A stretch of 64,000 nt of DNA from an uncultured Gemmatimonadales bacterium (lineage in GTDB: Bacteria > Gemmatimonadota > Gemmatimonadetes > Gemmatimonadales > Gemmatimonadaceae). The stretch spans positions 1,184,001-1,248,000 of the forward strand of contig CAWKNZ010000002.1 in assembly GCA_963851265.1 (NCBI GenBank), given 5' to 3'. The translations under genes and the position numbers were made by a program. The notes beneath the pieces were generated by a model. It was given only the letters and a program-made list of their open reading frames with translations. It was not told where the DNA came from and did no database searches. Below, piece after piece: positions 265-63,150 of the stretch; within the stretch, counting starts at the first letter, position 1; each line of letters begins with the position of its first letter.

Positions 265-977
265 TCGGGGAAGGGCGGGTGCGCGCCGCCGTCATCGGAC
301 GCGGGCGGATGGGCCGTTCGATCGAGGCGCTCGCCGACGAGCACGGCGTGGAAGTCGTGGCGAGCCTCGGACGGGGCGATCCGGTCGGGCGCGAGACGTT
401 AGGCGGCGCCGCCGTGGCGATCGAATTCACCGAACCCGGTGCGGCACTCGCGAATCTGCGTGCCTGCGCCGCCGCGGGCTGTCCCGTCGTCGTCGGGACG
501 ACCGGCTGGGGCGCGCCGGACGCGGCATTGCGCGCGGAACTCGCGGCCGCGGGCGCGCGCGCACTCGTTGCCGCTAACTTCTCGCTGGGAGTCAACGCGT
601 TGCTCGCGGCGGTGGGCCCCATCGCCGCGGCGCTCACGCGCGCGGGGTTCGTGGACCACCTCGTCGAGACGCACCACGCCGCGAAAAAGGACGCGCCGTC
701 GGGTACGGCACTCGCCATCGCCGACGCGGTCCAGCGCGACGCGGCGCGGCCGCCGATCAGCAGCGTGCGCGTCGGCTTCGTCCCGGGCACGCACACGCTC
801 GTGTTCGACGCGCCGTACGAGCAGGTTCGTATCACGCACGAGGCGCGTGACCGGCGCGTCTTCGCGTCCGGCGCACTCGTCGCGGCGCGCTGGCTCGCGG
901 CGGGCCGGCCGCCGGGACTCTACACCATGCAGGACGTGATCGCGCCCGCGGCCGACGCGTCGGAGGCACCCCGATGA
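261..977 (+). CDS. dapB: 4-hydroxy-tetrahydrodipicolinate reductase
   Basis: GRGRMG NAD-binding motif, VVGTTG, ANFSLG, ETHHAAKKDAPSGTA, HEARDRRVFASGA. Confidence 0.95.
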   Translation: MIGEGRVRAAVIGRGRMGRSIEALADEHGVEVVASLGRGDPVGRETLGGAAVAIEFTEPGAALANLRACAAAGCPVVVGTTGWGAPDAALRAELAAAGARALVAANFSLGVNALLAAVGPIAAALTRAGFVDHLVETHHAAKKDAPSGTALAIADAVQRDAARPPISSVRVGFVPGTHTLVFDAPYEQVRITHEARDRRVFASGALVAARWLAAGRPPGLYTMQDVIAPAADASEAPR

Positions 978-1969
978 GCGACCCGACATCCGGACGGCCG
1001 ACCCCGGCCGTGCTCGACGCCACGCCGCACGCGCGTCCCGGCGCGCGGCTGCGCGGCTGCGGCACGGCCCTCGTCACTCCATTCACCCGGGACGGTGCGG
1101 TCGACGTCGCCGCGCTGCGGCGCCTCGTCGCGTGGCAGCTCGCCGAGGGCGTGCACTTCGTCGTGCCGTGCGGGTCGACGGGCGAGGCGGCGACGCTGAC
1201 CGCCGACGAGCACCGGCGCGTCGTCGAGATTGTCGTCGACGAAGTTGCCGGACGCGTGCCAGTGCTCGCGGGCGCGGGATCGAACGACACGCGCAAGGCG
1301 ATCGAGGTGTCGCACGCAATGCGCGACGCCGGCGCGACCCACCTGCTGCACGTCTCGCCGATGTACAGCAAGCCGCCCCAGCGCGGGATCGAGGCGCACT
1401 TCCGCGCGATCGCCGACGCGGTCGCGCTTCCGATCGTCCTCTACAACGTGCCGGGTCGCACGGCGAGCAACATGGAAGCGGCGACGACGCTCCGACTCGC
1501 CGAGGTCGAGAACATCGTCGCGATCAAGGAAGCGTCGGGCAACCTCGCGCAGGTCGACGCGATCCTCCGCGACCGCCCGGCCGACTTCACCGTGCTCTCC
1601 GGCGACGACGCGCTCACGCTGTCGATGATCGGACTCGGCGCCGAGGGAGTCATCTCGGTGGTGTCCAACGCCACGCCGCGCGCGATGGCACAGCTCTGCG
1701 ACATGGCCGCAACTGGCGAGGCGGACGCCGCGCTCGAGACCCACCGACGTCTCGCGCCCTGGATGGATGCGGCATTCGTCGAGTCGAACCCGATCCCGGT
1801 CAAGGCCGCGCTCGCCATGTTGGGCGTTTGCGGCGACGCGGTCCGCTTGCCGCTCGTTCCGCTCGCCGATGAGCACCGGGCGCCCGTCGAGCGCGCGCTC
1901 CGGGCGGCCGGTGCGTTCGAACACGCGCCGGCGCGGTCGGACGCCCGCGAGGTGCTCGCGAGTGTCTGA
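974..1969 (+). CDS. dapA: 4-hydroxy-tetrahydrodipicolinate synthase
   Basis: TALVTPF, GSTGE, LYNVPGRT, IKEASG, ESNPIPVK. Confidence 0.97.
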   Translation: MSDPTSGRPTPAVLDATPHARPGARLRGCGTALVTPFTRDGAVDVAALRRLVAWQLAEGVHFVVPCGSTGEAATLTADEHRRVVEIVVDEVAGRVPVLAGAGSNDTRKAIEVSHAMRDAGATHLLHVSPMYSKPPQRGIEAHFRAIADAVALPIVLYNVPGRTASNMEAATTLRLAEVENIVAIKEASGNLAQVDAILRDRPADFTVLSGDDALTLSMIGLGAEGVISVVSNATPRAMAQLCDMAATGEADAALETHRRLAPWMDAAFVESNPIPVKAALAMLGVCGDAVRLPLVPLADEHRAPVERALRAAGAFEHAPARSDAREVLASV

Positions 1970-2825
1970 CGCGCACACCGAGCTCGAAGCACGCGTGCTC
2001 GCGTCAGCAAACACGCCGCCGGCGGAACCGCTGCCCGGCGACGCCGGCGAGACGGTCGAACAGCTGCTCGCCGCTCTCGAGGCGGGCGGCCTGCGTGCCG
2101 CCGAGCAGGACGCGGACGGAACGTGGCGCGCCGTGCCCTGGGTGAAGCGCGGCATCCTGCTCGCGTTCCGTCTCGGCCGCGTCGTCGACATGTCGCCGGC
2201 CACCGACGGCGGCCCGGGGTTCCGCTTTTACGATAAGAACACCGTTCCGCCGCGCGACATCGCGATCGACGCGGGCGTCCGCCTCGTTCCCGGCGGCTCC
2301 GCGGTGCGACGCGGCGCCTACCTCGCCGCGGGCGTCGTCTGCATGCCGCCGATGTACGTCAACGTCGGCGCATGGATCGGCGCCGGCACGATGGTCGACT
2401 CGCACGCCCTCGTCGGCTCCTGCGCGCAGATCGGCGCGCGCGTGCACCTGAGCGCCGCGGCGCAGATCGGCGGCGTGCTCGAGCCGGTGAACGCTGCGCC
2501 TGTGGTGATCGAGGACGACGTGCTCGTCGGCGGCAACTGCGGCGTTTACGAAGGCACGGTGGTCCGGCGCGGTGCCGTGCTCGCCGCGGGCGTCGTGCTC
2601 ACGCGCGGCACGCCCGTGTACGACCTCGTGCGCGAGACCGTCTACCGGGCGACCGCCGACGCGCCACTCGAGATCCCACAGGATGCCGTCGTCGTGCCCG
2701 GAGCGCGGCGCGTGCGCGGCGGCTGGGCCGAGGCCGAGGGGCTGATGCTGCAGACCCCCGTGGTCGTCAAGTACCGCGACGAGCGCACCCAGCTCGCGAC
2801 CGCGCTCGAACAGTGGCTGCGTTAG
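1962..2825 (+). CDS. dapD: Tetrahydrodipicolinate N-succinyltransferase
   Basis: WVKRGILLAFR, MPPMYVNVGA, GSCAQIG, IGGVLEP, hexapeptide repeats; GTG at 1962 overlaps the dapA end. Confidence 0.95.
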   Translation: MSDAHTELEARVLASANTPPAEPLPGDAGETVEQLLAALEAGGLRAAEQDADGTWRAVPWVKRGILLAFRLGRVVDMSPATDGGPGFRFYDKNTVPPRDIAIDAGVRLVPGGSAVRRGAYLAAGVVCMPPMYVNVGAWIGAGTMVDSHALVGSCAQIGARVHLSAAAQIGGVLEPVNAAPVVIEDDVLVGGNCGVYEGTVVRRGAVLAAGVVLTRGTPVYDLVRETVYRATADAPLEIPQDAVVVPGARRVRGGWAEAEGLMLQTPVVVKYRDERTQLATALEQWLR

Positions 2826-4100
2826 GCGCCGGGCGGACGACCGTGGCCGGCACGGTTCGCGTGCCCGGCGACAAGTCGATCAGCCACCGCGCGCTCATGT
2901 TCGCCGCCCTCGCGTCGGGCAACTCGCGCGTTCGCGGCCTCCAGGACGGCGCGGACGTTCGCGCGACGGCGGGCGCGTTGCGCGCGCTCGGCGCCGAGAT
3001 CGCGGACGACTCCGACGGCACGCTCGTGCGCGGCGGTGCGCTCCGGCCCGCGACGCAGGCGCTCGCGTGCGAGAACAGCGGCACCACCGCCCGACTGCTG
3101 GCCGGCGTCGCCGCTGCGCAGCCGTTCACCACGCGCTTCGTCGGCGACGCCTCCTTGTCTCGCCGCCCGATGGCGCGGGTGGCGGAGCCGCTACGCGCCA
3201 TGGGCGCGTCGCGTCGAGTTCGACGGCTCGCAGCCGCGACTGCCGATGACGGTCGCCGGGGGCTCGCTGACGAACATCGAGTGGACGATCGCGACGGCGA
3301 GCGCACAGGTGAAGAGCGCGATCCTCCTCGCGGGTCTGCTCGCGGGCGTCGAGGTCGTCGTGCGCGAGCCGCACCTTTCGCGCGACCACACCGAGCGCAT
3401 GCTCGCCGCGCGCGGGGGCCAGGTGTACGTGCGCGACGGCGCCGTCTGGCTGCCGCCCGGCCAGCACCTGGTGCCGCTCGACGTCACCGTCCCCGCCGAC
3501 CCGTCGTCCGCCGCGTTCTTCGCCGCGCTCGCCGCCCTCGCCGCGCGCGGCTCGCTCACGCTTCCTGGCGTCTGTCTCAACCCTACGCGTACCGGCTTCT
3601 TCGGCGTGCTCGCGCGGATGGGTGCGCAGCTCGAGTTCACCGACCGTGCGAACGACGGCGGCGAGCCGGTCGGCACGCTCATCGCGCACGCCGCGGCCGG
3701 GCTGCGCGGCGTCGAGGTCGACGCGGCGGAGGTGCCGTCGATGATCGATGAACTGCCGCTCCTCGCGTGCGTCGCCGCCTGCGCCGAGGGCGAGACCACC
3801 GTGCGCGGCGCGTCGGAGCTGCGCGTGAAGGAAAGCGACCGGATTGCGACCGTCGTCGCGAATCTTCGCGCGCTCGGGGTCGAAGCCGACGAGCTGCCCG
3901 ACGGCTTCGTCGTCCACGGTGGCGGGCCGCGCCGACTCGACGGCGCTGTCGCGGCGCACGGCGATCACCGGCTCGCCATGGCGTTTGGCGTCCTCGGCGC
4001 GCTCGACGGGAACGACGTGAGGGTCGACGATCCGGCGTGCGTCGAGGTGTCGTACCCGGCGTTCTGGCGCGATCTCGCCGGCGCGGTCGGCTCGGGATGA
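2813..4100 (+). CDS. aroA: EPSP synthase, split by a +1 frameshift near 3205-3212 (probable sequencing error)
   Basis: First frame: PGDKSISHRAL, ENSGTTARL, SLSRRPM. Second frame: ASAQVKSA, RDHTERML, LRVKESDR, DHRLAM. Start 2813 or 2843. Confidence 0.9.
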
Positions 4101-4819: not shown

Positions 4820-4855
4820 GTGTCGCTCGGGTACGCACTTCCGTGCGTCGCTGCG

Positions 4856-4884
4856 TTGACGCGCGAGAAGGGACGCGCTATGAT
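4856..4884 (+). promoter_or_regulatory. Sigma70-type promoter of rpsA
   Basis: TTGACG (4856-4861), 17 bp spacer, TATGAT (4879-4884) in the cmk-rpsA gap. Confidence 0.75.
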
Positions 4885-4987
4885 GCAAGGTTCGCGCTGC
4901 GTGACCGGCCTTCGGTCGTGGCGTCCCTTCCTTCATGACTCGACGCGGCGAGCCTAAAGACCCCGCGGTTCGGAGAGCAGCTTCGGT

Positions 4988-6811: not shown

Positions 6812-6937
6812 GGCGATTCGTCGCCCGTAGCACCACGCCGCCCGCGCCAGCCCCCGTGCTGTCGCGGGCGTCGTGCGTTCGACCACCCGCGCGCCGGCTA
6901 CCCGCCCCGGGAGCCCGCCGCTAGGTTGGCGCGCACG

Positions 6938-8490
6938 ATGTCCATGCGCGCGAAACTCGAAACGCTCGCCGCGCGCCGCGCGGCCTCCGAACTCGGCGGC
7001 GGCGCGGCCCGCCTCAAGGCCCAGCACGACAAGGGCAAGCTCTCCGCCCGCGAACGGCTCGACGTGCTGCTCGACGAGGGCACGTTCGTCGAGGTCGATC
7101 GTTTCGTCACCGCGCGCGCCGCGTCCGACGGCAACGGCGCCGACGGCCCCGTGTACGGCGACGGCGTGGTCACCGGCTCCGGCCGCATCGACGGGCGCCT
7201 CGTCTACGTGTTCTCGCAGGACTTCACCGTGTACGGCGGCTCGCTGGCCGAGGCCCACGCGCAGAAGATCTGCAAAATCATGGACCTCGCCGTGCGTAAC
7301 GGGGCCCCGGTCGTCGGCCTCAACGACTCGGGCGGCGCGCGCATCCAGGACGGCGTCGTCGCGTTAGGCGGGTACGCCGACATCTTCCTGCGCAACACGC
7401 TGGCGTCGGGAGTCGTGCCGCAAATCTCCGCCATCCTCGGCCCGTGCGCCGGCGGCGCGGTGTACTCGCCCGCGATCACCGACTTCATCTACATGGTGCG
7501 CGGCTCGAGCTACATGTTCGTGACCGGGCCGAACGTGGTGAAGACGGTCACGCACGAGGACGTGACGATGGAACAGCTCGGGGGCGCCGACACGCACGCG
7601 GCCACGTCGGGCGTCGCCCACTTCGCCCACGACTCCGAGCTCGCGTCGCTCGCGGCGATCCGCGAGCTGTTCCGGTACATCCCGAGCAACAATCTCGACG
7701 ACCCGCCGCGCGGGCGCGGCGCCGACCCGCGGGACCGCCGAGACGAAGCGCTGCTCGACGTCGTGCCCGACAATCCCAACCGCCCGTACGACATCCACGA
7801 CGTGATCCGCCGCGTGATCGACGACGGCGAGTTCTACGAGGTGCAGGCCGAGTACGCGGCGAACATCGTTTGCGGCTTCGCACACCTCGGCGCGCACTCC
7901 GTCGGGGTTGTCGCCAACCAGCCGGCGGTGCTCGCCGGCGTCCTCGATATCAACGCCTCGCTCAAGGCGGCGCGCTTCATCCGGTTCTGCGACGCGTTCA
8001 ACATCCCGATCGTCACCTTCGAGGACGTCCCCGGCTTCCTGCCCGGCGTCGCGCAGGAGCACGGCGGCATCATCAAGCACGGCGCGAAGCTGCTGTACGC
8101 CTACTGCGAGGCGACCGTGCCGAAGCTGACCGTCATCACGCGCAAGGCGTACGGCGGCGCGTACGACGTGATGAGTTCGAAGCACATCCGCGGTGACTTC
8201 AACGTCGCGTGGCCGACCGCCGAGATCGCGGTCATGGGGCCGAAGGGCGCGGTCGAGATCATCTACAAGCGCGAGATCGCCGAAGCCGACGACGCGGCTG
8301 CCGCGACCGACGCGCGCGTCGCCGAATACACCGAGCGGTTCGCCAATCCGTATGTCGCGGCCGCGCGCGGGTACGTCGACGACATCATCGACCCGCGCGA
8401 CACGCGCCCGCGACTCATCGAGGCGCTCGACGCGTTGCAGGGCAAGCGGGATCGCAACCCGGCCAAGAAGCACGGGAACCTGCCGCTCTG

Positions 8491-8491
<1 letters not shown>
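6938..8491 (+). CDS. pccB: Acyl-CoA (propionyl/methylmalonyl-CoA) carboxylase carboxyltransferase subunit
   Basis: [46 protein letters not shown]. Confidence 0.9.
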
Positions 8492-10037
<1,546 letters not shown>

Positions 10038-10041
<4 letters not shown>

Positions 10042-11902: not shown

Positions 11903-11939
11903 GCGCGAGGCTCGCGGTCGAATCGGCGCTAGCCGTTCA

Positions 11940-12923: not shown

Positions 12924-13054
12924 TCGCACCGGTCCACATCTCGCACGCCTCCCGAGCGCCGCGCGGGTGCCCGCCCCACGAGTCCGACTCCGGGGCGGGT
13001 CGCGCGGCGCCGCGACGGGGGCGGACGACCAACCCACGTTAGGCACACACCACC

Positions 13055-14268: not shown

Positions 14269-15147
14269 ATGAGCACCGCCACCTTCACCGCGAAGGACGT
14301 CCAGGAGCTGCGCCAGCGCACCGGCGCGGGCATGATGGACTGCAAGAAGGCCCTGGAGGAAAACCAGGGAAACATGGAGGCCTCGGTCGACTACCTGCGC
14401 AAGAAAGGCATCGCGAAGGCCGAGAAGCGCGCCGGTAAGAGCACGAGCGAGGGCGTGGTCCGCGCCGAGATCGGGCAGAACGGGTCGACGGGTGTGCTCG
14501 TCGAGATCAACTGCGAGACCGACTTCGTCGCGCGGAACGAGGGGTTCCAGGCGATCGCGAAGACCGTCGCCGACCAGGCGCTCGCGACGTCGACCGCCAG
14601 TGACGCCAACGCACTCCTGAGTTCCACGATCGCCGGTGGCCAGTCGGTCGAGGAGTACGTCAAGGAGAGCTCGGCGAAGATGGGCGAGGCCGTGAACGTG
14701 CGTCGCGTGGCGCGCTTCGACGCGCCTAACGGCGTCGTCGGGTCGTACGTGCACTTCAACGGCAAGATTGGCGTGCTCGTCGAGGTAGAGGCAGCCAACG
14801 GGTCGAAGGACGAGGCCCTCACGACGCTTGCCCGCACGCTCGCCGAGCACGTGGCGGCTGCAGCGCCGGTCGGCGTCGATCGCGATACCGTCCCGGCCGA
14901 CGTCGTCGAGCGCGAGCGCGCGATCTTCATCGACCAGGTGCGCGCGAGCGGCAAGCCCGAAGCGATGATCGACAAGATCGTGACTGGCAAGGTCGAGGCC
15001 TACTACAAGGACGTCGCGCTCGTCCACCAGGCCTGGATCCGCGAGCCGAAGACGACGATCCAGCAGGTCGTCGATCAGGCCGCCAAGCAGGTCGGCGCGC
15101 CGGTCACCGTCAAGCGCTTCGCACGTTTTCAGCTCGGGCAGGAGTGA
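14269..15147 (+). CDS. tsf: Elongation factor Ts
   Basis: [28 protein letters not shown]. Confidence 0.98.
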
Positions 15148-18163: not shown

Positions 18164-19314
18164 GCACCGGCCGCGCGTTAGGCGCCGCGCCGCGCGGCGT
18201 CGCCGTGTTGGGCAGCACCGGCTCCATCGGGACGGCCACGCTCCGCGTGCTCGCGCGGCACGCCGACCGCTTCGCGGTCCGCGCGGTGACCGCGCATCGG
18301 AACGCCGAACTCCTCGCGCAACAGGCCGCGGAGTTCGCCCCGGGCTATATCGGCGTGACGGATCCGGAGTCGGCCCGCGATGGCTGGCATGCTGGCGCTG
18401 ACGTGCTGCTGGAGGCGGCGACGCGCTCCGACGTCGACGTGGTCGTCAACGCCGTCGTCGGCGCTGCCGGCCTCGACGCGACTCTCGCGGCGCTGCGAGC
18501 GGGACGTCGCGTCGCGCTCGCGAACAAGGAAACGCTGGTCATGGCGGGCCGACTCGTGCGCGCGGCCGCTCGCGCCGGATGCGGCGAACTCGTGCCCGTG
18601 GACAGTGAACACTCCGCGATCCTGCAGTGCATCGCCGGGCGGCCGGGTCAGGCCGTGCGCCGACTGATCATCACTGCGTCGGGCGGCCCGTTTCGCACGT
18701 GGGACGCGGCTCGCCTCGCGGGCGCGACGATCGCCGACGCGCTCCGGCATCCGACGTGGACGATGGGCCGAAAGATCACGGTCGACAGTGCCTCGCTCGC
18801 GAACAAGGCTCTCGAGGTGATCGAAGCGCACGAACTCTTCGGCGTTCCGTACGACAGGATCGAGGTCGTGGTCCATCCGCAGAGCGTCGTGCATTCGATG
18901 GTCGAGTTCGTCGACGGCAGCGTGCTCGCGCAGCTTGGAACCCCGAGCATGGAAGTGCCGATCCTGTATGCCCTGACGCACCCGGAGCGGGCGGCCGACA
19001 CCGCACTCCCGCCGTTCGATCCGGTCGCGCACGGGCGACTCGACTTCGAGCCGGTTCGGCGCGACGCGTTCCCGATGCTCGATCTCGGGATCACGGCGGG
19101 GCGTAGCGGCGGCGCCGCACCGGCCGTGTACAACGCGGCGAACGAAGCCGCCGTCGCGGGGTTCCTCGAAGGCCGCCTCACCTTCGGTCAGATTCCGGTC
19201 GTGGTCGAATCAGCGCTCGACGCGCTCGGCACCCTTCCGGGCGAGACGCTCGACCACCTCCGAACGGCCGACGCCACCGCGCGGCGTCACGTCCGAGAAT
19301 ACCTCGCGCGCTGA
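18160..19314 (+). CDS. dxr: 1-deoxy-D-xylulose-5-phosphate reductoisomerase
   Basis: LGSTGSIG, LANKE, PVDSEH, TASGGPFR, HPTWTMGRKITVDSA, NAANE. Confidence 0.97.
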   Translation: MSTGRALGAAPRGVAVLGSTGSIGTATLRVLARHADRFAVRAVTAHRNAELLAQQAAEFAPGYIGVTDPESARDGWHAGADVLLEAATRSDVDVVVNAVVGAAGLDATLAALRAGRRVALANKETLVMAGRLVRAAARAGCGELVPVDSEHSAILQCIAGRPGQAVRRLIITASGGPFRTWDAARLAGATIADALRHPTWTMGRKITVDSASLANKALEVIEAHELFGVPYDRIEVVVHPQSVVHSMVEFVDGSVLAQLGTPSMEVPILYALTHPERAADTALPPFDPVAHGRLDFEPVRRDAFPMLDLGITAGRSGGAAPAVYNAANEAAVAGFLEGRLTFGQIPVVVESALDALGTLPGETLDHLRTADATARRHVREYLAR

Positions 19315-21173: not shown

Positions 21174-23084
21174 CTACTGACAGAGCAGTTTGTGCGGCTC
21201 GCGACGCGTCTTGCCCGCGACGACCGGGAGGCGGTCGTCGCTGTACGACGCGCAGGCGCTCGCCTCGACCGTTAGGCGATACGTACCGTCTGGGAGAACG
21301 AGCGGTTCGGAGAGGGGGAGCACACCCTCGCGTGTCGGTCCGCCGCGGAGCGGGACGAGCGTGTAATGCGGGGTCGACGTGGCGCTGAAATCGAGCAACA
21401 ACCGGCCACACGGGATCGGCTCCAACGTGATGGCCCGTCGGGTTCCCGGGACCACGTCGACCGCAACCGCCGTGTCGGCCGAGGAGCAGCCCGGGAGTCC
21501 CCCAACGCTCGCGCGTACCGTATAGCGGCCGGCCGGTATCGGCCCGCTCCGCCATGGCCCGCGCCCGACCGACTCGCCGTCGAGGTACACGTCGGCCTCG
21601 GACGGTACCGAGACTGAAACCGTGCCGGCGCCGACGGCCTTGGCCGGTCCGCCGCGCGCCGCGGCTGACCGCACTCTGCCGCCCATTACCGTGGCGACAT
21701 CGGCGCTGCCCGGGAGGGCCGCGCTCGCCATCGATGCGAGTTCGGCGCGACGGGCCGCTGTGGCGGCCGCAAGACGTAATGCCGAGTCGCTCGTTGAGCC
21801 CGGCGACCGGTTCGACAGGTCCGTGCCGGGCGCGACAGCCGGACGCGCCGAATCGGCGCCCAGCGACGTCACCGCGTGCGCGTCGAGGGTCGTCCCGAGA
21901 CCAGTCGCGGGGCGCGGCGCCGCCGTCGGCGCGACCGGACTTCGTGTCGGCGTCCGCTCGGGCGAGCCGCGGACCGCGAGCAGACGCCCGCCCACGATCG
22001 CGATGCTTCCGGCCGCGAGCGTCGCCGCAGCCCACCGCCAGCGCTTCGGCGCGCCGCGCGCGGCGGACGCAGCGGCGACGCGCGGAATCTCGGTGGTGTT
22101 CAGCCGGTTACCGGCCGCGCCGCGCAGGGCGTCGAGGGCGTCGGCCAGCGCGTCGCCTGTCTGGTACCGCGCCGCGGGATCCTTGGCGAGCGCACGCGCG
22201 ACCACGGCATCGAAGCGCCCATCGAGGTCGCCGTTCACGCTCGACGGCGGCGGTGCGGTCTCTTCGACGTGCTGCCGCATGACGACGTACCAATCGTCAC
22301 CGGCGAACGGCACGACACCCGTTGCCGCGCGGTACAGTGTGACGGCGAGCGAGTACAAGTCGCTCCGACCATCGAGCGCGAGTCCTCGGGCCTGCTCGGG
22401 CGAGAAGTACGCGGGCGTTCCGAGGAGGACTTGACGACTCGGCCCCGACGGCGCGGCGCTGAGTGCGCGTGCGATCCCGAAGTCGGTGACGACTGCGCGC
22501 CCGTCGCGGGCGAACAGCACGTTCTCCGGCTTGACGTCGCGGTGTACGATGCCCTGACGGTGGGCGTATGCGAGACCGCGCGCGACCTCCGCACCGATCC
22601 GCGCCACGTCGGACTCGCCGAGTGCCCCGCCCGCGTTGAGACGGTCGGCGAGCGAGTGCGGCAGGTAGTCCATCACCAAGTACGGCGCGCCGACCGGGAT
22701 ACCGTCGAAGGGCTCGGTCAGGCGCCCGACCGTCAGGACGGTGATGACGTGGGGGTGTCGGAGCTTCGCCGCCGTCGTTGCCTCGCGCCGGAACCGTTCG
22801 ACGACTTCTGCGTCGTGGGCGAGCTCCGGGCGGAGCACCTTGATCGCGACGTCGAGCTCGAGGTCTGGGTCGACGGCGTGGTAGACGCGGGCGAATCCGC
22901 CGACGCCGACCGACCGCACGACGCGGTAGCGGCCGAACAATCGGCCGCCAACCTCGGCGTCGGTCGGGGGGGGCGCAGCGACGAATTCGGGCGCGTCTGA
23001 CAGGGGCGGGACGGCGAAGGATGGACGCGGGCTGGCGAGCGCCGGCGCGCACGACGCCAACGGCCGCTGTCGCAGACTTGTCAC
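21174..23084 (-). CDS. Hanks-type Ser/Thr protein kinase with TM helix and extracytoplasmic PEGA-like beta region
   Basis: [62 protein letters not shown]; exact start uncertain. Confidence 0.9.
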
Positions 23085-37005: not shown

Positions 37006-38370
37006 ATGTCCGCCAAGCCGCTCCCGGGATTTCGCGACTTCTACCCGCAGGAGTTCGCCGAGCGCGCGTACATCTTCCGCGTGTGGCGCGAGGTCGCGGC
37101 GCGGTACGGCTTCGTGGAGTACGACGGGCCGCCGTTGGAGCCGCTCGATCTGTACACGCGCAAGAGCGGCGACGAGATCGTCACGCAGCTCTACAACTTC
37201 ACGGACAAGGGCGGCCGCGACGTCGCGTTGCGCCCCGAGATGACGCCGACGTTCGCGCGGCTCGTCGGCGCGAAGGCGAACGCGCTGCGCAAGCCTGTGC
37301 GCTGGTTCTCGATTCCGCAGCTGTTCCGGTACGAGCGGCAGCAGCGGGGACGGCTCCGCGAGCACTTCCAGCTCAACGTCGACCTCGTGGGCGAGGCCGA
37401 CGTGACGGCGGACTCGGAGCTGCTCTCGGTCGCGGTGGACATCATGCGCGGCTTCGGCCTGACGCACGAGGACGTGCGGGCGCGCGTGAGCGACCGCCGG
37501 CTGCTCGCGGCGCTGCTGCGCGGCATCGGCCTAACGGACGAACAGCTTCCCGCGGCGTACGCCGCCGTGGACAAGGTCGAACGCGACCCGCGCGACGTGC
37601 TCGTCGAACGGCTGACCGCGGCCGGCGTCGGCGCCGAGGCCGCCGGGCGCGTGCTCGACCTCGCGCGCGCCACGACCGTCGACGCGTTGCGCGCCGAGCA
37701 CGGCGCCGACCCCGCGGTGACCGAGGCGCTCGACCGCATGGCGCGGTACGTCGAGTACTGCGACGCGCTCGGCATCGCCGAGTGGGTATCGATCGACCTG
37801 TCGATCGTGCGCGGGCTGGCGTACTACACGGGCGTGGTGTTCGAGCTGTTCGACGCGAAGGGCGAGTTCCGGGCGATCTGTGGCGGCGGCCGCTACGACG
37901 CGCTGTTAGGCGCCCTCGGCGGTGCGGAGATGCCGGCGCTCGGCTTCGGGATGGGCGACGTCGTGCTGGGCGAGCTGCTCCGAGATCGGAAGCTGATGCC
38001 CGCGGCCGAGCCCGCACTCGACTACTGGGTCGAGGTCGATCCCGCGGCGCCGGATGCCCAGCCACGCGCGATGGCGCTCGCGACGCGACTGCGTGCGCGG
38101 TGGCGCGCGCGTCGAGTATCCGCTCCGGCGCGCAGGCGGTCGGCAAACAGACAGAAGGCGGCGTTCGCACGCCGGCGCTTGCCGCATCGTTCGCGCGCTC
38201 GGGCCGAACGACTCGGCGCGATGAGTACGAGATCGAAGTCCTCGCCGACGGCGCGCGCACGAAGTCGTGCGCGGCGATGCCTGGATATCCGAGCCGTCCG
38301 GCGAACCCGCTCGCGCGACGACCGACGAACACTCGCAAACCGAACTGCATGGCCGACGACAAGAAGCTGA
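37006..38370 (+). CDS. hisS: Histidyl-tRNA synthetase; anticodon-binding domain disrupted by several indels after about 38095, true stop uncertain
   Basis: [49 protein letters not shown]. Confidence 0.93.
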
Positions 38371-39815: not shown

Positions 39816-41101
39816 CGCCGCGCGACGCGGCGGTCGCGGACGCGCCGGCCGCGTTCGCGCACCTGGACGGCGTCCTCCACGCCGGCGGAGTGTCGCTCCC
39901 CGCGATCGCCGACGCGGTCGGGACGCCGACGTACGTGTACGACGTCGCGACCGTGCGGGCGCAGTACGCGCGGCTCGTGCGCGCGTTCGCCGGCGTTCCG
40001 CACCGAATCCACTACAGCGTGAAGGCCAACTCCAACCTGTCGATCCTCCGCGAATTCCAGGCGTTAGGCGCGGGGGTGGACGTGGTGTCGGGGGGCGAAC
40101 TGTTCCGCGCGCGCGAGGCCGGGTTCGGGCGGGGCGACGTGGTGTTCAGCGGCGTCGGAAAGACGGCGCGCGAGCTCGGCGAGGCGCTCGACGCCGGCGT
40201 GCTGTTCGTCAACGTCGAGAGCGAGGGCGAACTGCTGCTGCTCGACGCGGTCGCGGCGGATCGCCGCGTCGTCGCGCCGCTCGCGCTACGCGTAAACCCC
40301 GAAGTCAGCGTGGACAGCCCGCACGAGTACATCCGGACCGGCGAAAAGGGGCACAAGTTCGGCATTCCGTTCGACGAGGTGCCCGCCGCGGCGGAGCTTG
40401 CCCGCTCGCTCGACCACGTGCGGCTCGTCGGATTGGACATGCACATCGGGTCGCAACTGGCGACCTTCGACCCGTACGGCGCCGCTCTCCTACGCGTGAT
40501 CGGGTTGCTGACACGCCTGCGCGCGGACGGGGCCGACACGATCGAGTACCTCGACATCGGCGGCGGCCTCGCCGTCACGTATCGGGACGAGCCGGCGGCC
40601 GACGTCGACCGTTTCGCCCGCGGCGTCAGGGACGCGATTCGCGGGCTCGGCGTCTCACTGGTGCTCGAACCGGGGCGCTTCCTCGTCGCCGAGTCTGGCG
40701 TGCTGCTCGCGCGCGTGCTCTACCGCAAGCGGAGCGGCGGCAAGGAATACGTGATCACCGACGCCGGAATGAACGACCTCGTGCGGCCGTCGCACTACGA
40801 CGCGTACCATGCCATCACGCCCGTGGTCCCGCGCGGCGGCCGCGTGCTCGCCGACGTCGTCGGACCGGTGTGCGAGAGCGGAGACTTTCTCGCGCTCGAC
40901 CGCGAACTCGACGACGTGCGGCCCGGGGACCTCCTCGCCGTGCACACGGCCGGAGCCTACGGTTTCGCGATGTCGTCCAACTACAACTCGCGCCCGCGCG
41001 CGGCGGAGGTCGTCGTCGACGGCGGCGCGTGGCGCGTCGTGACGACGCGCGAGTCGTACGAGGACCTCGTGCGGCACGAGCGGGACGGAGGTGCGCCGTG
41101 A
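39797..41101 (+). CDS. lysA: Diaminopimelate decarboxylase
   Basis: YSVKAN (PLP lysine), [37 protein letters not shown] start inferred, overlapping the proS end. Confidence 0.95.
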
Positions 41102-44949: not shown

Positions 44950-45305
44950 GGGGGTGACTGGCTTCGACGGGGTCGGTAACGCCGTGGTTGCGTGTCCAGG
45001 TGCTGAGCCCTGGTGAAACACTCGGCAAAACACTACACGCCAACAACAACCTGGCGCTCGCTGCCTAACCCTTAGGGGTTAGCGTGGCAGTGCTCACGGA
45101 GTAGCCCGCCCGGGGCGACACGTGAGTAACGCAAATCTGGGCTAGTCCTGCGGTGTGTCGTCTATCGCGGGGCGAAACTCTAGACGACTTGTCTGGGCGT
45201 GGGCGGCCTGCCGGCCAGCGACCAGAGACCTCAATCGGCAGGATACACACGTAGACGCTGCGGTATAGCTCATCTCGGACAGGGGTTCGACTCCCCTCAC
45301 CTCCA
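44950..45305 (+). ncRNA. ssrA: tmRNA; tag peptide ANNNLALAA encoded at 45039-45068
   Basis: 5' GGGGGTGA..TTCGAC pairs with 3' CACCTCCA, G3-U wobble; T-arm GGGGTTCGACTCCCC; tag ends ALAA-stop; CCA not encoded. Confidence 0.96.
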
Positions 45306-45312
45306 CTGTCGT

Positions 45313-45381: not shown

Positions 45382-48354
45382 TCAGGGCACCCGCCGGAGG
45401 CTGGCCGCGCCCGCGCGCTCGCCGCCATCGCGGCTCGCGAGCGCGGCGTGCGCTGCCGCGAGGCGTGCGACCGGCACGCGGTACGGCGAGCACGACACGT
45501 AATCGAGACCGCTGCGGTGGAAGAACTGCACCGACCGCGGCTCGCCGCCGTGCTCTCCGCAGACGCCGACCTTGAGCGTCGGGCGCGTCGCCCGTCCGTC
45601 GTAGATCGCGCGTCGGATGATCTTGCCGACTCCGGCGACATCCAGAACCTGGAAGGGGTCGTCGGGGAGGATACCCTTGGCGACGTACTGAGGCAGAAAC
45701 CGCCCGGCGTCGTCGCGCGACAGGCCGAGCACGGTCTGCGTGAGGTCGTTCGTTCCGAACGAGAAAAACTCGGCGGTCTGCGCGATTTCGTCGGCGGTCA
45801 GCGCGGCGCGCGGCAACTCGATCATCGTTCCGACGAGGAAGGGTACGTGTTCGCCCATCGTGCCCATGACATCGTCGGCGACCTTCCGGACGATCGCATT
45901 CTGGTGCTCAAACTCGCGGGCGGTCGCGACGAGTGGGATCATGATCTCGGGCCGAACGTCCACCCCGCGGCGCGCCGCGCGCACGGCGGCCTCGAAGACC
46001 GCCCGCGCCTGCATCTCGGTGATTTCGGGGTAGGTGATTCCGAGGCGGCAGCCGCGGTGACCGAGCATCGGGTTCGACTCACGCAGGTCGTCGACCGTGC
46101 GGTGCAGCTCGTCGCGCGAGATCCCGAGCGTGCGGGCCAGCATCTTCGTCTCCTCGCCGCCGTGCGGGAGGAACTCGTGCAGCGGCGGGTCGAGGAGGCG
46201 AACGGTGACCGGGTAGCCGTCCATCGCTTCGAAGATGCCTTCGAAGTCCGTTCGCTGCATGGGGAGCAGCTTGGCGAGGGCGCGCCGGCGGCCGCCCTCG
46301 TCGCGGGCGACGATCATCTCGCGCATCGGCGTGATGCGGTCGCCCTCGAAGAACATGTGCTCCGTCCGGCACAGGCCGATCCCCTCGGCGCCGAACGCCC
46401 TCGCGACGCGGGCGTCCTTGGGCGTGTCGGCGTTGGCGCGGACGCGGAGCGTGCGCACCTCGTCGGCCCACGCCAGTAGCTGGCTAAACGCGCGGTACGT
46501 CGGCGAGGATGCCGCGAGGGCCTGGCCGCTCACGACGCGCACGACCTCGCTCGGGACCGTCGGGAGGTCACCGAGGTAGACGTTCCCGCTCGAGCCGTCG
46601 AGCGTGACGAAGTCGCCCTCGTGGACGATGGTCGAGCCGACGGTGAAGCGGCGGCGGTCATCATCGACCGACATCGCGGACGCACCGACGACGGCGCACT
46701 TCCCCATCCCGCGCGCGACCACCGCCGCGTGACTGGTCATCCCGCCACGGGCGGTGAGGATTGCGCGCGCGGCGACCATGCCGTGGAAGTCTTCGGGCGT
46801 GGTCTCCTCGCGCACGAGGATCACCGCCTCGCCCGCGTGCGCCCGACGCTCGGCGCTGTCGGCGTCGAACACTGCCGCGCCGCTCGCCGCGCCGGGGCTG
46901 GCCGGGAGCCCGGTCGCGACCGGGGTCGCGCGTACGGCCGCATCGATCACCGGGTGCAACAGCTGATCGAGCTGCGCGGGCTGCACGCGCGCGACGGCCT
47001 CGGCGCGCGAGATCAGTCCCTCGCGGACCATGTCCTCGGCGATTCGCACCGCCGCGGGCGCGGCGCGCTTTCCGGTCCGCGTTTGCAGGAGGTACAGCTT
47101 CCCGCGCTCGACCGTGAACTCGATGTCCTGCATGTCGCGGAAGTGCGATTCGAGCCGCTGCTGCGTGGCGAGCAGGTCGTCGTAGGCCTTCGGCAGTCGC
47201 TGCGCCATGTCGTCGATGCGGAGCGGCGTGCGGATGCCCGCGACCACGTCCTCGCCCTGCGCGTTGACGAGGAACTCGCCGTAGAACCGCCGCTCGCCCG
47301 TGGACGGGTCGCGCGTGAAGGCGACCCCCGTCCCCGAGTCGTCGCCCATGTTGCCGAAGACCATCGCGACGACGTTGACCGCCGTGCCTAACGAGTCGTC
47401 GATGCCGTTCACGCGCCGGTAGTCGACCGCCTTTTTGAGCGTCCAGGACGTCCACACGGCGCGGATCGCGCCCCACAGCTGCGCCTCGGGGTCGGACGGG
47501 AAGTCCTCGCCGGTGGCCGCGCGCACCAGCGCCTTGTACTCGGCGACGAGCGCGCGGAGCGCGTCGGCCGGCAACTCGGCGTCCGACTCGACCCCCACGC
47601 TCGTCCGCTTGGCCGCGAGCTGCGCCTCGAACCGGTGCTGCGGCACCCCGAGCACGACGTCGGCGTACATCTGGATGAACCGCCGGTACGAATCGAAGGC
47701 GAAGCGCGGATTCGCGCTCTGCCGCGCGAGGCCTTCGACCGCGGCGTCGTTCAGTCCGAGGTTGAGGATGGTCTCCATCATCCCCGGCATCGACACCGGC
47801 GCGCCCGAACGCACGCTCACGAGCAGCGGATCGTCGGCATCGCCGAACCGCTTGCCCGCGTCCTGCTCCAGACGTGCGAGGTGATGCGCGACGGCGTCCC
47901 GGAGATGGTCCGGGACGCCGCCATTCGCGAGGAAGTCGCCGCATGCGCTGCAGGCGATCGTGAATCCCGGGGGGACCGGCACGCCGAGATTCACCATCTC
48001 GGCGAGGTTCGCGCCCTTGCCGCCGAGGACCGCTTTCATGCCGCGCGTGCCGTCGGCGCCGCCCGGGCCAAAGCGGTAGACGAGCCGCGGCGGAGCTGAC
48101 GGCGCGGCCGCCGCAGAGCCGTTCGACGCCGTCCCGGCTTGCCCGTGCGCGTCGGCGGGCTCGCCCGGACGGACCGGGTCCTGCTCGGCCGCATCGATCA
48201 GGGCGTCGGCGGCCTCGTTGGCCGCGTTGTCGCCAACGTCGGCCGAGCTGGTGTCGTCGACCTCGGTGGGCGCGGGGAGGTCGGCCGGCGCCGACTCGAT
48301 GAGCGGGTCGCCGGCCAGGGCGGGAGGAAGCGCGGTTTCTGCGTCAGACGTCAT
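45382..48354 (-). CDS. ppdK: Pyruvate phosphate dikinase with N-terminal extension
   Basis: LGGKGANLAEM, SVRSGA..SMPGMM, GGMTSHAAVVARG, GLCRTEHMF, GTNDLTQ, GVCGEHGG; start uncertain. Confidence 0.96.
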   Translation of the reverse strand: MTSDAETALPPALAGDPLIESAPADLPAPTEVDDTSSADVGDNAANEAADALIDAAEQDPVRPGEPADAHGQAGTASNGSAAAAPSAPPRLVYRFGPGGADGTRGMKAVLGGKGANLAEMVNLGVPVPPGFTIACSACGDFLANGGVPDHLRDAVAHHLARLEQDAGKRFGDADDPLLVSVRSGAPVSMPGMMETILNLGLNDAAVEGLARQSANPRFAFDSYRRFIQMYADVVLGVPQHRFEAQLAAKRTSVGVESDAELPADALRALVAEYKALVRAATGEDFPSDPEAQLWGAIRAVWTSWTLKKAVDYRRVNGIDDSLGTAVNVVAMVFGNMGDDSGTGVAFTRDPSTGERRFYGEFLVNAQGEDVVAGIRTPLRIDDMAQRLPKAYDDLLATQQRLESHFRDMQDIEFTVERGKLYLLQTRTGKRAAPAAVRIAEDMVREGLISRAEAVARVQPAQLDQLLHPVIDAAVRATPVATGLPASPGAASGAAVFDADSAERRAHAGEAVILVREETTPEDFHGMVAARAILTARGGMTSHAAVVARGMGKCAVVGASAMSVDDDRRRFTVGSTIVHEGDFVTLDGSSGNVYLGDLPTVPSEVVRVVSGQALAASSPTYRAFSQLLAWADEVRTLRVRANADTPKDARVARAFGAEGIGLCRTEHMFFEGDRITPMREMIVARDEGGRRRALAKLLPMQRTDFEGIFEAMDGYPVTVRLLDPPLHEFLPHGGEETKMLARTLGISRDELHRTVDDLRESNPMLGHRGCRLGITYPEITEMQARAVFEAAVRAARRGVDVRPEIMIPLVATAREFEHQNAIVRKVADDVMGTMGEHVPFLVGTMIELPRAALTADEIAQTAEFFSFGTNDLTQTVLGLSRDDAGRFLPQYVAKGILPDDPFQVLDVAGVGKIIRRAIYDGRATRPTLKVGVCGEHGGEPRSVQFFHRSGLDYVSCSPYRVPVARLAAAHAALASRDGGERAGAASLRRVP

Positions 48355-49853: not shown

Positions 49854-52154
49854 TCAGGATGCCGCGGCGCCGGACATGGCGGCGGGGATCGTATCGTGAT
49901 ACCCGCGCGCGAGCGCGTCGGTCGGTGCCGACCAGATCGCGTCGCCGACGCGTACGCGGAATCCGGCGTCGGCCCCGGTGACGCGGCCGATGACAGCCGC
50001 CGGAACACCGTGCTCGGCCGCGTGGCGAAGAACCTCGTCGGCCGCCTGGGTCGACACGATCACGCGCCCGTGCGCCTCGCCGTACAGGAGCGCACGGATC
50101 GGCAGGTGCGACCACGCCGTCAGGTCGATGTCGACGCCTGTTCGCACGTCGGGGTCGGCCATCGTGCATTCGGCCAGCGCCACGGCGAGGCCGCCGTCGC
50201 TCGTATCGTGGGCCGACCTCACGACGCCGGCGCGGATCGCGGCGAGCAGCGCGTCGATGAGCCGTCGCTCCCCATCGAGGTCGACGCGCGGCGGCGCGCC
50301 CGCGACGCGGCCGTGGACCCGCGCGAGGTACTCGCTGCCACCGAGCGCGTCGGTGTTGTCGCCGAGCAGGACGACGGCGTCGGCGGACGCGCCCTCGGTC
50401 GGCGCGCGGAACGCGGCACGCGTGACGTGGGCGAGCGAGTCGATCAGTCCCACCATGCCGACGACGGGCGTGGGGTAGATCGCGCCCGTCGGGTTCTCGT
50501 TGTACAGCGACACGTTGCCGCCCGTGACCGGCGTGCCTAACACACGGCACGCCTCGCCCATCCCGCCCACCGCCTCGCGGAGCTGGTGATAAACGTCGGG
50601 GCGGGTGGGATTCCCGAAATTGAGATTGTTCGTGATCGCGAGCGGGCGCGCGCCGGTGCACGCGACGTTCCGCGCGGCTTCGGCGACGGCTCCCTTTGCA
50701 CCCTCGCGCGGGTCGAGGTAGCAGTGCCGACCGTTGCAGTCGGTTTTCACGGCGACGGCGCGGTCGGTTCCGCGGAGCCGCACCACGGCGGCGTCGCCTC
50801 CCGGCCCGATGACCGTGTTGGTGCGGACCATCGTGTCGTACTGACGGTAGACCCACCGCTTGCTCGCGATGGTCGGGCTCGCGAGCAGTTCGCCGAGCGC
50901 CCAGAGCGGGTCCGCTTCCTCGGCGCGTTCGGGAATCCCGGACACATCGGTCGTGCGGAGCGCCCGGACGACTTCGGACTCCGCCGCCTCCGGCGTGTAC
51001 ATCGGGCAGTCGGTGACGAGGCGCGTGCCGGGGAACTCGGCGACGATGCGCTCGCCCTCTGTCACCCGGTACACCGGCTCGGCGATCACCTCGCCGATCA
51101 CCGCCGCCGTCAGATCCCACTTTTCGAGCACCGCGCGCACGGCGTCCTCGCGCCCGCGTTTCGCGACGACGAGCATCCGCTCCTGCGACTCGCTGAGGAG
51201 GATCTCGTAGGGCGTCATGTTCGGCTCGCGTACCGGCACCTTCGTCACGTCGATCGTGACGCCCACATCTCCACGCTCGGCCATCTCGGCACTCGACGAG
51301 GTCAGGCCGGCCGCGCCCATATCCTGGATGGCGACGATGTCGCCCGAGGCGATCAGTTCGAGCGATGCCTCCAAGAGCAGCTTCTCGGTGAACGGATCCC
51401 CAACCTGAACGCGCGGCCGCTTGGCCTCGGTTGCGGCCGAAAGGTCTTCGGACGCGAACGACGCGCCGTGGATCCCGTCGCGCCCTGTGCGCGCGCCGAC
51501 GGCGAGGATGGGATTGCCGACGCCCTGCGCGACCGCGCGAATGAGTTCGTCCTCGCGAAGCAGGCCGACGCACATCGCGTTGACGAGCGGGTTGCCCTCG
51601 TACGCGGCGTCGAACGCGACCTCGCCCGCCACCGTCGGCACGCCGACGCAGTTCCCGTAGTCGCCGATGCCCTTCACGACGCCTGCGAACAGGTGTCGCA
51701 CGCGTGGCGAGTCGAGCGACCCGAAACGCAGGGAGTTGAGCATCGCGACGGGGCGCGCGCCCATGGTGAACACGTCGCGCAGGATACCGCCGACGCCGGT
51801 CGCCGCGCCCTGGTACGGCTCCACGGCGGACGGGTGGTTGTGCGACTCGATCTTGAACGCGACGGCGAGCCCGTCGCCGACGGCGATGACGCCCGCGTTC
51901 TCGCCCGGCCCCTGCAGCACCCAGGGCGCCTGTGTCGGCAGCGTGCGGAGGAGCGGGCGCGAATGCTTGTACGAGCAGTGCTCGCTCCACAACGCGCTCA
52001 CGACGCCGAGCTCGGTGTAGGTCGGGGTGCGACCGAGCATCGCGAGCAGGCGCTCGTACTCGAACGGCGTGATGCCGTGTTCTGCGACCAGGTCCGGGGT
52101 GATCTCGGGGTCTCCCGGGCGGGGCAGCACGGCGGCGGGAGCGGTGGGCGTCAC
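49854..52154 (-). CDS. purL: FGAM synthase subunit PurL (small type)
   Basis: [45 protein letters not shown]. Confidence 0.98.
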
Positions 52155-52164
52155 GGCCGTAGCC

Positions 52165-52467: not shown

Positions 52468-52506
52468 GTGCGGTGGTGGTGCAAGAGTGGAGGTGTCGAA
52501 AGGTGG

Positions 52507-53199: not shown

Positions 53200-53209
53200 G
53201 CGGCCTCCG

Positions 53210-54444: not shown

Positions 54445-54467
54445 CGCCCGATCCGACCGCGCGCGCC

Positions 54468-55133: not shown

Positions 55134-55162
55134 GGCGCGGCTGATCCTCGGCGGGCCGGCGG

Positions 55163-60567: not shown

Positions 60568-60626
60568 CGCGGGCTGAAGCTAGCCGTGCCGGGAACGGGC
60601 GAGCAACTTACGCAGACCAGACGCCC

Positions 60627-62000: not shown

Positions 62001-62040
62001 GGCGGGTCGGCGTGCGCGATCGCGCGACGGCGGGCGGCCG

Positions 62041-63150
62041 ATGAGCTCCGCGGCTGCGGTCGCGGGCGGCGCGCCCGCCGCGCCTCCGGACGCGCCGGCG
62101 GCCCCGCTCCGCGCGGCGCTGCGCGAGCTGGCCGCCGGTCGCGCGGTCCGACCGTCGGACGTCACCGACGCCTTCGAGGTCGTGATGCGCGGCGAGGCGA
62201 CGCCCGCCCAGATCGCCGCCCTGCTCATGGGGCTCCGGGTGAGGGGCGAGACTGCGCCGGAGATCGCCGCCGTCGCGCGCGCGCTGCGCGCCGTGATGGT
62301 TCGGTTGCCCGCGGACCGCCCGGAGGCGCTCGTCGACACGTGCGGCACGGGCGGTGGCGCGATCAGCACGTTCAACATCTCGACCGCCGCTGCACTGGTC
62401 GCCGCCGGGGCCGGCGTGCGCATCGCGAAACACGGGAACCGCTCGTTCACGTCCCGCTCGGGGAGCGCCGACGTGCTCGAAGCGTTAGGCGTACCCGTGG
62501 ATCCGACGGTGCCGGAAATGCAGCGCGCGCTCGCGTCGGCGGGCATCGCCTTCATGTACGCGCCGCGGATGCACCCCGCGATGCGGCATGTGGGCGCGGT
62601 GCGGCGGGAACTCGGCGTGCCGACGGTGATGAACGTCGTCGGCCCGCTCGCGAATCCGGCGATGGCTGGGCGTCAGGTGGTCGGCGTGGCCGATGCGCAC
62701 CGCGCGCCGCTCATCGCGGGCGCGCTCGCGGACCTCGGCGCCGTACACGCGCTCGTCGTGCACGGTGAGCCAGGTCTGGACGAGATCTCGCCACTCGGAC
62801 CGACGCACGTGTACGAGGTTCTCGCCGACGGCGGCGGAGGTGATCCCGCCGCGCGGCCGGTCGCGCGGGAGTGGACGATCAGGCCCGAGGCGCTCGGGCT
62901 CCGCGTGAACGACGCGTCGGACCTGGCCGGCGGCGAACCGGCAGAGAACGCCCGGGTCGTGCTCGACGTGCTCGGCGGCGGCGGGAGCGCGGGAGCGCGC
63001 GCCGCGGTGTTGCTCAACGCGGGCGCCGCGGTCTACGTGGCCGGACTCGACGCGACGTACGAAGCCGCCGTCGAGCGCGCACGGGCGGCGCTCGACGGCG
63101 GCTTGGGGTTACGAACGCTGGAGCGGCTGCGGGCGGCGTACGGCGCGTAA
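62041..63150 (+). CDS. trpD: Anthranilate phosphoribosyltransferase
   Basis: DTCGTGG, TFNIST, KHGNRS..S.SGSADVLE, HPAMR, GPLANP, LDE. Confidence 0.96.
   Translation: MSSAAAVAGGAPAAPPDAPAAPLRAALRELAAGRAVRPSDVTDAFEVVMRGEATPAQIAALLMGLRVRGETAPEIAAVARALRAVMVRLPADRPEALVDTCGTGGGAISTFNISTAAALVAAGAGVRIAKHGNRSFTSRSGSADVLEALGVPVDPTVPEMQRALASAGIAFMYAPRMHPAMRHVGAVRRELGVPTVMNVVGPLANPAMAGRQVVGVADAHRAPLIAGALADLGAVHALVVHGEPGLDEISPLGPTHVYEVLADGGGGDPAARPVAREWTIRPEALGLRVNDASDLAGGEPAENARVVLDVLGGGGSAGARAAVLLNAGAAVYVAGLDATYEAAVERARAALDGGLGLRTLERLRAAYGA

Follow-up and report, generated by a model that had tools for sequence, protein, structure and literature searches.

The heptamer GTTAGGC, in its extended form (C)GTTAGGC(R), occurs 19 times in a 64,000-nucleotide stretch of the genome of an uncultured Gemmatimonadales bacterium (the window, G000:C2:1184001-1248000). 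The analysis of the whole assembly and of its relatives gave good support to the conclusion that it is a double-stranded, orientation-independent genomic word, driven or selected at the level of DNA. By analogy with the DNA uptake sequences (DUS) of Neisseriaceae and the uptake signal sequences (USS) of Pasteurellaceae, we favour, with somewhat less than even confidence, the reading that the word works as a self tag of the DNA-uptake type, which would involve an uptake bias, a recombination drive and a specific reader.

Excess of GTTAGGC in the Window and in the Genome

The 19 copies in the window, 11 written GTTAGGC and 8 written GCCTAAC, compare with 1.78 expected from dinucleotide-preserving shuffles (maximum 6; none of 100 shuffles reached 19), and the 21 one-mismatch variants have a mean of 4.5 copies each. 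The original prediction, made from the letters of this stretch, had listed the same copies with their positions and strands, and our count found none missed. Its flank counts (C at -1 in 14 of the 19 copies, a purine at +7 in 18) were reproduced exactly, as was its estimate of about 13 other TTAG/CTAA tetramers, the total being 32, of which 19 lie in the word. Inside the genes of the window there are 15 copies, against 1.04 ± 0.91 in 300 within-gene shuffles of synonymous codons.

The window belongs to an assembly (G000) of 4.6 Mb and 73% G+C in 12 contigs, 94% complete; HisS and the sequence flanking it assign the window to Gemmatimonadaceae, and the closest named relative is Roseisolibacter sp. 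H3M3-2 (HisS identity 73%). Its genes were called with our own codon log-odds caller, which gave 3,710 genes covering 88% of the genome, and the frame counts reported here depend on these calls. The word is present in 1,762 copies. Each contig carries about 0.38 per kb, and the density of the word increases with local G+C. Called genes hold 1,286 copies against 71.6 ± 7.5 in 30 within-gene synonymous-codon shuffles, an 18-fold excess, although this shuffling preserves the proteins and the codon use, including the rare codons contributed by the word itself. The excess thus withstood, in the window and in the genome, the codon-shuffle check that had been set beforehand. Variants at word positions 1, 5, 6 and 7 are far rarer (8–213 copies versus 1,762), which answers the second check proposed with the prediction, and the word accounts for 71% of all TTAG in the genome.

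The flanks show C in 79% of the copies at -1 and G or A in 76% at +7, with no further conservation. The consensus of the DtxR/IdeR iron box contains GTTAGGC; this candidate was rejected, as conservation around the 1,762 copies ends at -1 and +7. Maximum-order Markov scores of G000 did not flag the 7-mer, because the word saturates its own sub-words, whereas lower-order models flag it. The maximum-order list is headed by words around AGCGCT (AGGCGCT, 2,075 versus 1,040 expected; AAGCGCT, 635 versus 234).

Equal Occupancy of the Two Strands

The copies of G000 fall into several frame classes: 992 are read as G-TTA-GGC in sense, 199 as G-CCT-AAC in antisense, 70 as xGC-CTA-ACx and 23 as GTT-AGG-C, while 191 lie across gene ends and 287 in spacers. 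Sites at which the word could be written are filled to the same extent on both strands. TTA occupies 992 of the 5,737 G-Leu-GGC sites (17.3%) and CCT 199 of the 1,095 G-Pro-AAC sites (18.2%); after a C in place of the G, these occupancies are 0.2% and 0.6%. As many as 77% of the in-frame TTA codons of the genome lie within the word. The excess of sense copies follows from the commonness of Leu-Gly, and equal occupancy in sense and antisense is not what a signal acting through translation or RNA would produce. Together with the 18-fold excess over codon-preserving shuffles, this bears out the original suggestion that selection or drive acts at the DNA level.

The word is also written over stop codons in 205 genes, as GCC-TAA-C in 122 of the 433 TAA stops and as GT-TAG-GC in 83 of the 739 TAG stops (own calls; TGA stops number 2,533). 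The share of TAA among the stops is high for a genome of 73% G+C, and the word accounts for 28% of the TAA stops. In spacers its density is 1.14 per kb between convergent genes versus 0.35 between divergent ones. At variable positions the word forces residue changes, for example GVT to GLT in hisS.

Spacing and Conservation of the Copies

A genome is called rich in what follows when it holds at least twice as many copies as of the reversed-word control, and poor at less than half. In G000, 1,191 of 6,832 synonymous sites are filled, and in 1,000 permutations of these sites none gave as few close pairs as observed. Pairs of filled sites less than 100 bp apart numbered 2, against 34 ± 5.6 expected; the figures were 10 against 68 below 200 bp, 26 against 99 ± 8.9 below 300 bp, and 80 against 159 below 500 bp. 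This deficit is independent of orientation (41 same-strand and 37 opposite-strand pairs). In samples of seven other rich genomes, six had fewer gaps below 300 bp than a Poisson expectation (38 versus about 75). Since the copies avoid each other whatever their orientation, the force acts on segments and not on single sites. In the stretch of the seventh (G051:C1:1291001-1351000) the copies tend to form close pairs, mostly on the same strand, the opposite of G000.

Three congeneric genomes were compared with G000 over syntenic DNA (83–85% identity): 11 of 16, 10 of 18 and 15 of 19 window copies were kept (56–79%), against 23–29% of frame-matched 7-mers, so that the word is kept two to three times better. 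Among 65 pooled sites, 8 were common to all four genomes of the genus and many were private. Conservation above background together with private sites indicates that the word is maintained and yet still gained and lost. In distant relatives the word positions often hold other residues.

These results bear on one possible explanation, a mutation or repair bias acting autonomously at each site, with no reader and no function. One-step neighbours are indeed raised in the same context: GTTGGGC, read as G-TTG-GGC, occurs 449 times versus 19 for C-TTG-GGC. However, independent sites would not avoid each other, and a force on segments speaks against a pure bias of this kind; the passage from CTC or CTG to TTA takes two changes against strong G+C pressure, and the copies are conserved above background. 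We consider this explanation hardly credible.

Rich and Poor Genomes in the Family Gemmatimonadaceae

The abundance of the word is bimodal among 151 genomes of Gemmatimonadaceae, of which 46 are rich, 91 poor and 14 intermediate, and 27 of 77 genera include at least one rich genome (the survey includes the unpublished G011, G045, G046 and G144; none is rich, and no conclusion rests on them). As the word is abundant in dozens of independent assemblies, a base-calling artefact, the third possibility raised with the prediction, is not credible. The density of the 8-mer among rich genomes runs from 0.05 to 1.33 per kb, a range of about 25-fold, which is easier to reconcile with accumulation and decay than with a constant structural requirement.

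On a tree of three concatenated proteins (FastTree, 71 rows; loci shorter than 6 kb and those aligned over fewer than 500 residues were excluded), the rich label requires at least 7 changes, versus 19.7 when the labels are shuffled, and purely rich clades have purely poor ones as neighbours. With so clean an on/off state and at least 7 changes on the tree, a putative reader should be findable by phylogenetic profiling. Among 119 genomes from other families of the phylum (a survey that includes the unpublished G203 and G232), a single one is mildly enriched: G275 (family f2, genus g109), with 726 copies of the 8-mer versus 293 of the control (ratio 2.5). Two others from genus g109 show no enrichment.

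A Possible Self Tag for DNA Uptake

Published work on uptake sequences (PMC1939737) describes even spacing, no orientation bias, many intragenic copies and one effective copy per fragment. If the word of G000 is such a tag, it would be built up and kept by a process that works on segments of DNA rather than at individual sites. A surface or periplasmic reader belonging to a type IV pilus and ComEC route would prefer fragments that bear the word, homologous recombination would then fix new copies, and a single copy per fragment would suffice; the specific reader may have been gained and lost among lineages. An uptake route is available in G000, judging from its gene content: there is a full pilus cluster, pilSR-pilA-pilMNOQ, and ComEC is encoded at G000:C2:1510102.

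Several points weigh against this reading. A literature search found no paper on competence in the phylum Gemmatimonadota. ComEC (45/46 rich and 81/91 poor genomes, the three genera without it being all poor) and PilT (46/46 and 91/91, 151/151 overall) are nearly universal in the family, and therefore they do not explain the on/off state. Neither of two minor pilins examined in G000 follows the word across three rich and two poor genomes. About two thirds of the family are without the word, unlike DUS and USS, and 400 kb of the poor genome G006 held no alternative hyper-abundant word that could count as a dialect. The word is only 7–8 bp long. In G051, gaps below 300 bp are in excess (14 versus 6.4 expected). 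Furthermore, an uptake drive does not predict a conserved tract free of the word around mnmG-parAB-mnmE, and it leaves the letter identity of the word with the integron core unexplained; both are described below.

The Word-Free Tract and a Possible Site for an Intracellular Protein

The largest stretch of G000 without the word measures 45 kb (G000:C1:182876-227962), where 5.6e-5 such gaps are expected, and holds mnmG, parA, parB and mnmE; dnaA lies on the same contig, about 170 kb away (G000:C1:12048-12530). The tract is syntenic in G001, G003 and G004 (74–88% identity in BLAST pieces), which ruled out a foreign island. Over the aligned stretches of G004 and G001, at 80–81% identity, there are two copies and one copy of the word, respectively. 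In four other rich genera, 52–60 kb around parB had a near-average density (8-mers per kb around parB against the average: 0.55 against 0.60, 0.71 against 0.97, 0.48 against 0.51 and 0.95 against 1.25; the genomes were G051, G060, G059 and G012). The word-free tract is therefore not a general origin effect, and exclusion of the word from the origin or from the ParB region did not hold up.

The main rival to an uptake tag is that an intracellular protein binds the word, for instance one engaged in nucleoid organisation, repair or recombination, with selection keeping about one site per kilobase. The mutual avoidance of copies within about 300 bp without regard to orientation, the conservation of existing copies and the 45-kb tract of G000 would all suit such a site. 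On the other hand, rich genomes differ about 25-fold in the density of the word and two thirds of the family do without it, the surroundings of parB are near average in 4 of 4 other rich genera, and no candidate protein was found. We regard this rival as serious, though unlikely. Of the roles that the original prediction had put forward, uptake and chromosome organisation survive; the third, a Chi-like signal, fared less well.

Replication Polarity and a Proposed Chi-Like Signal

The strand of the word tracks gene orientation, with a steady sense:antisense ratio of about 4:1 along the contigs of G000, and not replication. With the terminus guessed from gene orientation, occupancy is 18.4% in leading versus 13.0% in lagging orientation, whereas an estimate from GC skew at third codon positions (GC3 skew), which is noisy in G000, gives 16.2% versus 17.0%; origin and terminus are only loosely placed in this assembly of 12 contigs. 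A 120-kb stretch of G004 has 32 copies on the plus and 43 on the minus strand. Replication polarity of the word is weak or absent, in keeping with the original prediction, which took the 11:8 split in the window as an argument against a strongly polar, KOPS-like role.

A signal of the Chi type, at which a helicase-nuclease working on double-strand breaks stops degrading and starts recombination, would also be over-represented, placed in core genes and lineage-specific, and the first of the two estimates shows a mild leading-strand excess. The GC3-skew estimate, however, shows no such polarity, the G004 stretch has copies on both strands, and RecC, as a mark of a RecBCD-type enzyme, was not found in G000 and is present in 4/46 rich versus 12/91 poor genomes (17/151 overall). 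A Chi-like role is accordingly very unlikely.

Methylases and Other Candidate Readers

In HIP1, the abundant word of cyanobacteria, there is a precedent for a link with methylation. A published account (PMC13756078) describes it as quasi-periodic, recognised by a pair of methylases, promoting transformation in a way that depends on methylation and hypothesised to be an uptake sequence. By the same logic, a methyltransferase could mark GTTAGGC, and a mark-dependent repair or uptake could create and keep the copies.

Non-palindromic words of 7 bp suit the specificity of enzymes of the MmeI/Eco57I type. A conserved gene pair, encoding an MmeI/Eco57I-like N6 DNA methylase (about 1,070 aa) together with a helicase of the SNF2 family (about 780 aa), was seen at G000:C7:583220-584149 and at L135:2085-7702 (G060), and an open reading frame of the size of the helicase follows the methylase in most of 21 genomes. 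The pair is unusually constant for a gene of the restriction-modification kind and has no link with the word. The methylase gene is present in 144 of the 151 family genomes (43/46 rich and 87/91 poor), hence as common in poor genomes as in rich ones. Among 21 of its sequences, identity was 0.516 among those of rich genomes, 0.483 among those of poor ones and 0.493 across the two groups, and 1 of 1,062 columns was disjoint. It was rejected as the reader, since it has no rich-specific region.

The other families gave no better candidates. C5 methylase (PF00145), which was absent from G000, G001, G004, G008 and G012, occurred in 11/46 rich and 24/91 poor genomes, and the repair protein Vsr in 9/46 and 18/91 (29/151 overall; none in the genus of G000). 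PF01555, PF02384 and PF02086 were rejected because, in a panel of five genomes, they had no pattern common to G000, G012 and G060. In G000 there was no match to Vsr, RecC, C5 methylase, PF01555 or PF02086; matches to PF02384 (N6_Mtase) came in pieces at C7:771474-772495 and C9:923-1858, which look like decayed methylase genes. VirB4, taken as a proxy of type IV secretion, was found in 2/46 rich and 3/91 poor genomes (5/151 overall). None of Vsr, RecC, VirB4, C5 methylase and the integron integrase (for which see below) was associated with the rich state, and all five were set aside as drivers. Furthermore, repair acting site by site would not yield the mutual avoidance of the copies. A methylation-linked word is, in our judgement, improbable, the constant Eco57I-like gene of G000 and the HIP1 precedent speaking for it.

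Likeness to the Integron Core Site

GTTAGGC fits the integron core GTTRRRY, and GCCTAAC the inverse core RYYYAAC, as these are given in a published description (PMC3053210). In an attC site an inverse core and a core stand 57–141 bp apart and form a hairpin beside cassettes. Only nine attC-like pairs were found in G000, accounting for at most 18 of the 1,762 copies; about 99% of the copies are unpaired singletons within housekeeping genes. The attC-like pairs of G000 were noted at C10:188936-203792, C2:116027-116147, C6:1592-1708 and 34252-34324, C9:56165 and C11:4066, and some of them fold well above shuffles. A match to an integron integrase lies at G000:C6:5244-6044, on the strand opposite to an open reading frame for a large serine recombinase (own gene calls).

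In poor genomes the word stands mainly within cassette arrays. An example is an integron cassette array (L103-L104, G015:C95:1-25000) from a neighbouring family, in a genome poor in the word, with 22 hairpin pairs of GCCTAAC and GTTAGGC, 65–129 bases from start to start, within 25 kb; the typical cassette-type pairs are spaced about 0.5–1.5 kb apart. Eight of these pairs were folded and gave free energies of -8.6 to -34.9; seven ranged from -24 to -35 versus -11 to -25 in shuffles, and the weakest (-8.6) was a short, overlapping pair.

One could suppose from this that the copies in the genome act as, or stem from, recombination sites of the integrase. Cassette genes often carry a core-type word over their stop codon, as 205 genes of G000 do, and the published core and inverse core, the array of G015 and the nine pairs and integrase match of G000 would agree with such an origin. 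Nevertheless, the integrase is present above the cut-off in 28/46 rich and 52/91 poor genomes (p 0.72), seven very rich genomes, G001, G012, G093 and G141 among them, lack a full copy of it, and all but the few paired copies are single within conserved genes. We give this link little credence. A further thought is that the letters are shared for a reason, rich genomes offering sites at which genes become cassettes, or cassettes landing at single genomic copies, with the reader tied to that traffic; in rich Gemmatimonadaceae thousands of ordinary genes have GTTAGGC at their borders, and the 205 stop-codon copies end their genes just as the inverse core ends cassette genes. The lack of association between integrase and word speaks against it, and it would be a long shot.

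The Individual Copies in the Window

The gene names given in the original prediction agree with a Pfam match in every case: dapB, dapD, a carboxyl transferase gene (pccB-like), a biotin carboxylase gene (accC), rpsB, tsf, dxr, a Ser/Thr kinase gene, pnp, an M16 peptidase gene, mrdA of the penicillin-binding protein 2 (PBP2) type, hisS, lysA, ppdK, purL and trpD. Conservation of each copy was followed in three relatives of the genus, G001, G002 and G004.

Eight copies are kept in all three. Five are read as G-TTA-GGC, in the carboxyl transferase gene (7363..7369, +), accC (9030..9036, +), pnp (24726..24732, +), hisS (37905..37911, +, where the Gly position is variable) and trpD (62484..62490, +). 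A second copy in hisS (37529..37535, -) is read as GGC-CTA-ACG and places Leu where most relatives carry Val. The remaining two are the non-coding copy 17 bases upstream of the ATG of rpsB (13038..13044, +) and the copy in the transfer-messenger RNA (tmRNA) gene (45063..45069, -). The tmRNA gene itself occupies positions 44950-45306 and encodes the tag ANNNLALAA, whose final Ala codon and stop are written in the word as GCC-TAA-C. With the copy across the stop codon of dapD (GT-TAG-GC, 2821..2827, +; kept in G004 and G002), these two confirm the predicted overlap with the dapD and tmRNA-tag stops and the presence of the word in the rpsB leader.

Among the other copies read as G-TTA-GGC (Leu-Gly in dapB), that of dapB (398..404, +) is kept in G002 and differs in G001, that of dxr (18177..18183, +) is kept only in G002, that of lysA (40063..40069, +) in G004 and G002, that of ppdK (47386..47392, -, the gene being on the minus strand) in G001 and G002, and that of purL (50535..50541, -, gene likewise on the minus strand) only in G001. 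The antisense copy in the kinase gene (xGC-CTA-ACx, 21271..21277, +) is kept in none of the three relatives. The reading CCT-AAC had been predicted for tsf, mrdA and the M16 peptidase. It holds for tsf (G-CCT-AAC, Pro-Asn on the sense strand, 14724..14730, -; kept only in G002) and for both copies in mrdA (G-CCT-AAC; 32106..32112, -, kept only in G002; and 33339..33345, -, at a variable residue, kept in none). In our gene calls it does not hold for the M16 peptidase, as that copy (26000..26006, -; kept only in G004) lies 40 bases upstream of the called start. It may still lie within the true gene: the Pfam match starts at position 12 of the profile, and so the true start may be further upstream.

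Comparison With Known Systems

Words written thousands of times into a genome against its codon habits are rare; the best understood, DUS and USS, govern the acceptance of DNA. The Gemmatimonadaceae belong to a different phylum and are abundant soil bacteria, and if the uptake reading is true, sequence-specific recognition of own DNA extends beyond two proteobacterial families. The word also offers a simple marker of foreign DNA in rich genomes, and it raises the question why a genome word should equal the integron core site.

Like DUS and USS (DNA uptake-enhancing sequences, DUES), GTTAGGC is a short, non-palindromic, over-represented word found in both orientations and without clear replication polarity, with intragenic copies in tolerated frames, enrichment in spacers and at gene ends, even spacing and forced residue changes. 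DUS and USS are words of 9–12 bp, whereas GTTAGGC has 7–8 bp, and a single family contains both genomes that have it and genomes that lack it; the one poor genome searched for a dialect (G006) showed none. Minor pilins are the receptor class of Neisseria uptake, and two of those of G000 do not follow the word. The word is set apart from membership in the DUS and USS by the lack of a family-wide presence with dialects and of a known receptor, and Gemmatimonadota would be a new phylum for such words.

HIP1 (GCGATCGC) is likewise hyper-abundant, conserved, quasi-periodic and missing in some lineages; it is palindromic, has two methylases and correlates with type IV secretion, whereas GTTAGGC is non-palindromic, no tested methylase family tracks it, and the VirB4 proxy is present in only 5 of the 151 genomes. 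The attC sites of integrons (core and inverse core GTTRRRY/RYYYAAC) have the same letters, seen in the GCCTAAC...GTTAGGC hairpins of the G015 cassettes, and differ in that about 99% of the copies of G000 are single in housekeeping genes and that integrase presence is independent of the word.

Chi (RecBCD/AddAB) and the FtsK-orienting polar sequences (KOPS) are also over-represented short words in core DNA. Both are strongly polar about ori and ter; the polarity of GTTAGGC is weak or absent, and RecC was not found in G000. Searches of the literature on the word and on Gemmatimonadetes found no published account of GTTAGGC, in agreement with the statement in the original prediction that no such motif was described for this lineage. 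What the present analysis adds to these systems is the equal occupancy of the two strands, the avoidance between copies over about 300 bp, a bimodal survey of a family with contingency tests on eight gene families, a count of state changes on the tree and the word-free parAB tract.

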